Source: Escherichia coli
GTDB lineage: Bacteria; Pseudomonadota; Gammaproteobacteria; Enterobacterales; Enterobacteriaceae
Length of the DNA stretch: 244 nt
Strand: one strand, 5' to 3'
Assembly: GCF_003334335.1 (NCBI RefSeq)
Contig: NZ_QOWQ01000231.1
Shown: positions 1-243 of the stretch, one piece after another
Numbering within the stretch: the first letter of the stretch is position 1
Layout: the number at the start of each line of letters is the position of its first letter
The notes under the pieces: model-generated
What the model was told of the DNA's origin: nothing
Database searches by the model: none
Seen by the model: the letters and a program-made list of their open reading frames with translations, nothing else
Translations under genes and position numbers: made by a program

Positions 1-150
1 CCGGCAGAGCCGGAAGCTGCATCCGTAGCGGAAACCGATGGTAAAGCCTTTCCTCAGCCAGCAGGTGTTGCGTTACCTGTCCGGGAAGCAGAAACACAGG
101 AAGAAATAAAAACGGAAAGTGTGGCGGTCACAGTGCAGTCACAGCCGTCG
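1..150 (+). other. Compositionally biased (Ala/Glu/Pro/Val/Thr/Gln-rich, net acidic) segment of the encoded protein; probable flexible interdomain linker or disordered region
   Basis: Codons 1-50 contain 9 Ala, 8 Glu, 7 Pro, 6 Val, 4 Thr and 4 Gln. There are 9 acidic residues (8 Glu, 1 Asp) against 3 basic (2 Lys, 1 Arg). No Cys, Trp, Tyr, Met, His or Asn occurs, and Phe, Leu and Ile occur once each. Confidence 0.5.
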
Positions 151-243
151 TTCACCAGAAAACATCCGGATGGTCTGATTTTACCATCGCTGCATGTGGC
201 TAACCGCGAGCTGCGCCGGGCAAAAGGTCAGGTTCAGAAGTGG
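1..243 (+). CDS. Internal fragment of a larger protein-coding gene, partial at both ends (no start or stop in window); product unidentified, with an acidic low-complexity linker-like segment followed by a basic segment
   Basis: Frame 1 is open for all 81 codons, while the other five frames contain stops; an 81-codon stop-free run in random sequence has roughly a 2% chance. Codon choice is largely enterobacterial-like (ccg, gcg, ctg, cag, gaa). No in-frame ATG or GTG is preceded by a plausible ribosome-binding site, so the start lies upstream of the window. Product is unknown: I do not recognise the peptide with confidence. Confidence 0.78.

Follow-up and report, generated by a model that had tools for sequence, protein, structure and literature searches.

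Among described proteins, the nearest to the one considered here is YdaW of the Rac prophage, a predicted E. coli transcription factor of unknown function whose length varies between strains (PMC9308461). Over-expression of K-12 ydaW is reported to block the RcaT toxin of retron-Sen2 (bioRxiv 10.1101/2020.06.22.160242), and DUF1627, the Pfam family concerned, is cited as a marker gene in the vicinity of PasA and PasC, two prophage sRNAs (bioRxiv 10.64898/2026.05.13.724894). Searches for a functional study of DUF1627 or YdaW in the literature, and for a solved structure in the PDB, found none. The K-12 YdaW (b1361, 186 aa; L012:2253-2813) matches only aa 1-139 of the intact protein, ending inside an acidic linker at about codon 10 of the window, where the Rac deletion joins it to rzpR. 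Unlike the intact protein, it is without the C-terminal module that the window covers, and the result with RcaT does not, therefore, bear on the region described here.

Three further systems invite comparison, each with a different part of the protein. Lambda Ren (NP_040633.1) is encoded directly after a P-type gene and gives a weak profile match to the second winged-helix domain of DUF1627, but is a protein of 96 aa with a single winged helix and has neither an acidic linker nor a conserved C-terminal module. Tandem winged-helix proteins, namely ScpB, the C-terminal domains of SelB, ESCRT-II subunits, and the N-terminal region of AlkZ/AlkX, resemble the two N-terminal winged helices (Foldseek E = 1e-4 to 1e-2), a likeness confined to the fold of aa 1-124, outside the window, and with TM-scores brought down to about 0.2 by a different arrangement of the domains relative to each other. 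The acidic linker and basic helix of DUF1627 are lacking in ScpB, SelB, ESCRT-II, and AlkX. bZIP proteins and coiled coils share with DUF1627, by analogy only, a basic cluster followed by a 3-4 hydrophobic repeat on one helix; no sequence or profile match joins bZIP to DUF1627, however, and the hydrophobic stripe of the latter extends through the basic cluster itself.

The window, meaning the whole stretch of 244 nucleotides of E. coli DNA that was analysed, is an exact copy of part of an annotated RefSeq protein gene, the Pfam DUF family of which was already known. It lies within the CDS of WP_000450636.1 and is found at 100% identity at NZ_CP075652.1 52931-53174. Frame 1 of the plus strand is its sole open frame and agrees with the annotated CDS, encoding aa 130-210 of a 241-aa "DUF1627 domain-containing protein" homologous to Rac YdaW; stops interrupt each of the other five frames, which yield no more than two short ORFs (23 and 33 aa). 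A first-pass annotation, made from the letters of the window, had held that the family could not be determined from such a fragment and had placed it in a large protein. Both statements fall: at 241 aa the protein is small, and it belongs to DUF1627 over the full length of the family, matching PF07789 from model position 1 to 155 of 155 (aa 76-230, E = 1.1e-82, score 275.9) and PHROG 630 over aa 1-237 (E = 2.4e-119). With PF07789, PHROG 630, and Rac YdaW the protein thus shares a full-length, family-level match and the same early-right operon position. NCBIfam gave zero matches for the protein and PADLOC a single, insignificant one, and there is no sign of an embedded RNA element, since an Rfam scan of the 2 kb around the window (both strands, E up to 1) returned no match.

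Copies of the sequence are common in E. coli. Among the megablast matches listed, the 244 bases recur at 100% identity in at least 7 complete chromosomes, and copies of at least 80% identity were found in about 1,000 of the 5,426 complete genomes, with a median of two per genome, the CDS over every E. coli copy being annotated as a DUF1627 domain-containing protein. Twelve phage records, comprising Rac-SA53 and PPompW/Stx2a prophages, carry copies of 80-83% identity, and the homologue in phage Rac-SA53 is annotated as ydaW. The family is small: among 1.84 billion representative proteins, searched exhaustively with HMMER, it makes up 156 clusters at E <=1e-3.

In E. coli STEC17-183, the gene (L001:7614-8339, 241 aa) sits in a lambdoid/Rac-type prophage, the genes of which run in the order integrase, excisionase, exonuclease, DicB, repressor, cro-like regulator, and YdaT, followed by DUF1376 (YdaU-like), replication protein P, DUF1627, DUF977, and nin-like genes. 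Replication genes of the DnaT/DUF1376 type lie within one gene of DUF1627 in seven of the eight elements with visible upstream genes; all seven have the DUF1627 gene downstream of cro/YdaS and YdaT, and six of them contain a lambda-P-type gene. A comparable arrangement is found in Rac-SA53 and five further metagenomic or genomic loci. The link to replication genes is not universal, as one divergent homologue follows a RecE-like exonuclease in an element also encoding Cox- and Ash-like proteins. A small winged-helix gene, of Rrf2 type or DUF977/LygF, is often found directly downstream (L004:4938-5264, L007:2532-2876, L001:8355-8747, L011:5684-6037), which hints at a conserved pair with DUF1627. 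In the same STEC17-183 prophage, a RelE/RelB toxin-antitoxin pair lies by the immunity region (L001:4333-4812) and the type I toxin hokD farther right (L001:11991-12146); the DUF551 gene of this prophage survives as two pseudogene fragments.

Conservation and predicted structure divide the protein in the same way (Table 1). In an alignment of 50 sequences, the query and 49 full-length members of the family sharing 19-76% identity, aa 1-52 are well conserved (consensus METVLDALKAMGKAT.REIAARL, with L34 and W50 invariant in all 50 sequences), aa 53-68 form a variable spacer, aa 69-124 are again conserved, aa ~125-170 are poorly so, and conservation returns over aa 171-230 with the consensus v.sIPsF..r.DDLiiPT...i..EIRRTK..L..LEkLR.AvRe..KH., P191 and R201 reaching 90% conservation or more. 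The C-terminal module is as strongly conserved as the winged helices. AF2, run with this alignment, gave a model with a mean pLDDT of 83 and predicted an H-H-H-E-E topology twice at pLDDT >94, both of these winged helices lying outside the window. The alignment, the model, and the census of architectures described below agree on the canonical DUF1627 arrangement of wHTH1, wHTH2, variable linker, and C-terminal helix module.

Table 1. Features of the 241-aa DUF1627 protein, with their positions in the window where they fall inside it.
Feature	Window positions	Strand	Codons	Residues (aa)	pLDDT	Remarks
Winged helix 1				1-52	94-97	folded
Winged helix 2				69-123 (conserved to 124)	94-97	folded
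Linker, whole				125-170	52-56	no secondary structure
Acidic linker, part in window	1..123	+	1-41	130-170	52-56	<1.1 bits, occupancy 0.5-0.7
Short motif v.sIPsF(t)..r.DDL(i/v)(i/v)P(t/s), here VTVQSQPSFTRKHPDGLILPS	124..189	+	42-63	171-192		occupancy 0.94-1.0, 1.6-2.1 bits
Conserved motif as modelled				170-188	59-64	weak helical turns
TRKH basic patch	154..165	+	52-55	181-184		specific to this allele; makes the apparent sharp switch
C-terminal amphipathic basic helix, first half	190..243	+	64-81	193-210		AF2
Basic cluster RELRRAK	205..225	+	69-75	198-204		family consensus (n/s)rEIRRTK
C-terminal helix, whole				193-222 and 224-240	~95	helix

The two N-terminal domains account for the likeness to known DNA-binding proteins. 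Foldseek against the PDB retrieved the tandem winged-helix proteins DIP2311, ScpB, SelB, ESCRT-II, and AlkX/YcaQ, and the family profile matched AspA, MarR, ArsR, and Z-alpha over aa ~70-130 (E = 9e-6 to 1e-2), while Pfam gave weak HTH matches and a weak AlkZ-like match on aa 62-136. A winged-helix fold of the kind seen in MarR/ArsR-like transcription factors is therefore present in the protein, in domains outside the window. Among the proteins matched by the profile over aa ~70-130 are ADAR1 and ZBP1, through their Z-alpha domains, which bind Z-DNA and Z-RNA (E = 9e-6 to 5e-3), and AspA, a centromere-binding protein of archaea; this likeness may be no more than that of winged helices in general. 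The recognisable DNA-binding folds of the protein are, according to these models, the two N-terminal winged helices, which would make DNA binding by them plausible.

The segment that follows, rich in Ala, Pro, Glu, Thr, and Val, connects the second winged-helix domain to the C-terminal module. The first-pass annotation had taken the acidic stretch of the window for a flexible linker, and this is borne out by its low model confidence, its lack of predicted secondary structure, and its variable length: from the second domain to aa 171, the 50 homologues have between 16 and 60 aa, with a median of 34. Across the same homologues the linker consists of 16% A, 14% P, 12% E, 10% T, and 9% V, and in 94% of them it is net negative; in a charge-hydropathy plot it falls on the disordered side. 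The linker is thus acidic, variable in length, and predicted to be intrinsically disordered. It had also been proposed that homologues should keep the basic segment and vary the acidic one in length and sequence, and that the opposite pattern, with a conserved and structured acidic part or a poorly conserved basic part, would speak against a linker; the 50 homologues show the former pattern and not the latter. The label of an acidic low-complexity region holds for the acidity and the biased composition of the segment, but not in the formal sense, the lowest entropy of any 12-aa window in the region being 2.36 bits, so that none reaches the SEG trigger of <=2.2 bits.

The switch in charge had been described as sharp and placed between codons 50 and 51. 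On recount the residue numbers were exact for both segments: codons 1-50 hold 9 D/E against 3 K/R, with A, E, P, V, S, T, and Q making up 41 of the 50 residues, and codons 51-81 hold 7 K/R and 2 H against 2 D/E. When the 81 residues were shuffled, the split as originally fixed gave a permutation p = 0.014, but a free, scanned split point gave p = 0.10, and the charge switch in this single sequence is therefore suggestive rather than compelling. The family makes the stronger case. In 96% of the 50 homologues the 60 C-terminal aa carry a net positive charge (median +5), and the family-averaged charge is slightly negative over the motif at aa 171-189 and positive from about aa 190, with peaks in mean charge of +2.8 at aa 196-204 and +2.6 at aa 217-225. 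The charge switch is confirmed as an observation, and is convincing across homologues rather than in one sequence.

What does not carry over to the family is the sharpness at codon 50/51 and the boundary itself. Two alleles are found among close E. coli copies, a TRKHPDG/S type in 77 of 115 rows (the query counted) and a TET(R/Q/K)ADD-like one. The latter and most family members are acidic at the TRKH site (TETRADD, ..R.DD), Rac-SA53 reads AETQADD there, and the mean family charge at the site is slightly negative. The TRKH allele shifts the apparent switch some 10 residues upstream, which makes the sharpness allele-specific; across the family the sign changes at about aa 190, or codon ~61 of the window. 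Conservation, for its part, begins earlier than codon 51, at about aa 171 (codon ~42), and TRKH is not itself conserved. The conserved basic feature is, judging from the alignment, the RELRRAK cluster rather than TRKH. Elsewhere the E. coli copies concerned share at least 86% identity, but at window positions 154-174 (aa 181-187) they carry either basic TRKHPDG/S or acidic TET(R/Q/K)ADD, which suggests a small mosaic replacement within the conserved motif.

The conservation of the segment after the linker, evident from the occupancy and information content of the motif, agrees with the first-pass annotation, which had further expected the start of a folded domain here, possibly one binding nucleic acid. 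AF2 instead predicts a short motif of low confidence and then one long amphipathic helix to the end of the protein. In the motif, positions 188-190 are hydrophobic in 74-94% of sequences, and confidence is low in the tethered dimer described below as well as in the monomer; it probably serves in docking or capping and takes up its fold only when bound. The helix spans aa 193 to about 240 and thus runs on for 31 codons past the end of the window. A hydrophobic stripe is formed by positions 193, 196, 200, 207, 210, 213, 217, 220, 227, and 230, in a heptad-like pattern with an irregular 3-3 step, and the conserved basic residues lie on helix faces other than that of this stripe. An amphipathic 3-4 spacing of hydrophobic residues is typical of helix-helix packing. 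The share of sequences with a basic residue is 100% at position 201, 86% at 202, 94% at 204, and 94% at 222, and the share with an acidic residue at 199 (E199 in this protein) is 68%. No PDB match to aa 130-241 was obtained with either the single protein or the family profile, the part of the protein encoded by the window matched no known structure or DNA-binding family in Pfam, NCBIfam, PDB, or BFVD, and the matches of Foldseek against the PDB and viral predicted structures were to generic winged helices alone, with nothing informative on the C-terminal helix.

The modularity of the family was examined by running sub-HMMs for the three modules over 150 representatives. The canonical WH1-WH2-CT is the commonest architecture (52 representatives), followed by WH1-CT (15) and WH1-WH2-WH2-CT (2), the remainder being fragments or fusions, and this census makes the C-terminal module the constant partner of one to three winged helices. 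Three winged helices are found in P0170 and P0200 (308-311 aa) and one in P0153, P0182, P0232, and P0249 (117-151 aa). In the chimeras P0146, P0126, and P0123-P0125, O-like/DUF1376 replication or unrelated N-termini are joined to the DUF1627 linker and C-terminal module, with junctions in or near the linker or wHTH2; these chimeric proteins are probably deletion fusions in decaying prophages.

With moderate confidence, we read the window as the tether and the start of the C-terminal interaction module of a modular DUF1627 (YdaW) prophage early protein. The two winged-helix domains (aa 1-52 and 69-124) would bind DNA, the acidic disordered tether (aa ~125-170) would give reach, and the motif together with the C-terminal helix would serve as an interface between proteins, at which YdaW either self-associates or docks onto a partner from the phage or the host, for instance the replication module. 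The negative charge of the linker may keep it extended and off DNA, or may shield the basic helix. Should the C-terminal part be such an interface, the charge switch would mark the junction between tether and interaction helix and not the entry to a nucleic-acid-binding domain. Self-association was modelled with AF2 from two copies of aa 166-241 joined by (GGGGS)x6 (30 residues), using a paired alignment of 40 homologues; the mean pLDDT was 58.7 and the pTM 0.46, and the pLDDT of the helix fell from about 95 to about 80. As no confident assembly was obtained, homodimerisation is unsupported. Counting against the interface as a whole, the conservation of R201, K204, and K222 fits direct contact with nucleic acid equally well.

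That contact, already raised in the first-pass annotation, is the basis of the strongest rival, which we regard as unlikely, in which the basic C-terminal helix itself binds nucleic acid in the manner of a bZIP, the EIRRTK cluster preceding a zipper-like repeat and the acidic linker acting as a spacer or an autoinhibitory DNA mimic. What keeps this explanation alive is the strong conservation (71-100%) of basic residues at 201, 202, 204, 218, 222, and 224 amid surface neighbours that vary, and the two family charge peaks, the hydrophobic positions that follow the basic cluster at 207, 210, 213, 217, and 220, and the retention of linker acidity where the linker sequence is not retained are all consistent with it. 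The stripe, however, also crosses the basic cluster at 193, 196, and 200, unlike the free basic region of a bZIP; the dimer that a bZIP requires was not confidently predicted; searches of Pfam, NCBIfam, and the PDB gave no match to a known DNA-binding family; and the protein already has two canonical winged-helix domains.

Less probable still is a kinship with lambda Ren, of which the protein would be an extended relative; the region covered by the window would then serve in escape from Rex-type exclusion or in anti-defence and not in replication or regulation. The gene occupies the same slot as ren, directly after the P gene (lambda ren L006:2281-2571), and profiles hint at a possible relationship: weak matches to the PHROG 'Ren-like exclusion protein' were obtained over aa 71-120 (E = 1.4e-5 and 5e-3), and hhalign aligned lambda Ren with the family profile over the winged helix only (probability 66%, E = 5.8e-5). 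The reported block of RcaT by over-expressed K-12 ydaW (bioRxiv 10.1101/2020.06.22.160242) would fit a role in anti-defence. Homology to Ren does not, however, extend over the full length, the hhalign alignment covering 49 columns and the PHROG matches being weak and partial; the likeness is to one winged helix only, the linker and the C-terminal module are both absent from Ren, and the K-12 YdaW lacks the C-terminal module of the window.

The weakest rival, and a very improbable one, is that the charge switch has no functional meaning and is a chance fluctuation at a mosaic or recombination joint in a decaying prophage gene: lambdoid genes are mosaic, the scanned permutation test and the allele-specific TRKH patch accord with chance, and many database copies are truncated or fused, the K-12 copy being truncated in the linker, but the family alignment and the charge counts largely refute it, as the great majority of homologues, some with as little as 19% identity, keep the charge signs, the linker retains its charge although its sequence does not align, the C-terminal module is conserved like the winged helices, the canonical three-part architecture is the commonest, and the DUF1627 gene of the source genome is intact.

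The reading of the window as tether and interaction module makes the charge switch an ordinary junction between domain, linker, and tail in a known and widespread prophage family, present in about one fifth of complete E. coli genomes and often in several prophages per genome. The useful output is accordingly a sharper description of a very common, unstudied prophage protein and not a discovery. A bolder version, which we consider improbable, is that the IPxF...DDLiiP motif and the basic amphipathic helix form a previously undescribed docking element for O/P-type replication machinery or a host target, to which the acidic leash would tether one to three winged-helix domains. In that event, DUF1627/YdaW would assist lambdoid replication or the evasion of defence as an accessory factor, and might be an extended relative of Ren. 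If the tail does dock onto the replication module or a component of host defence, a gene that most Stx-converting and Rac-like prophages carry would thereby gain a role.
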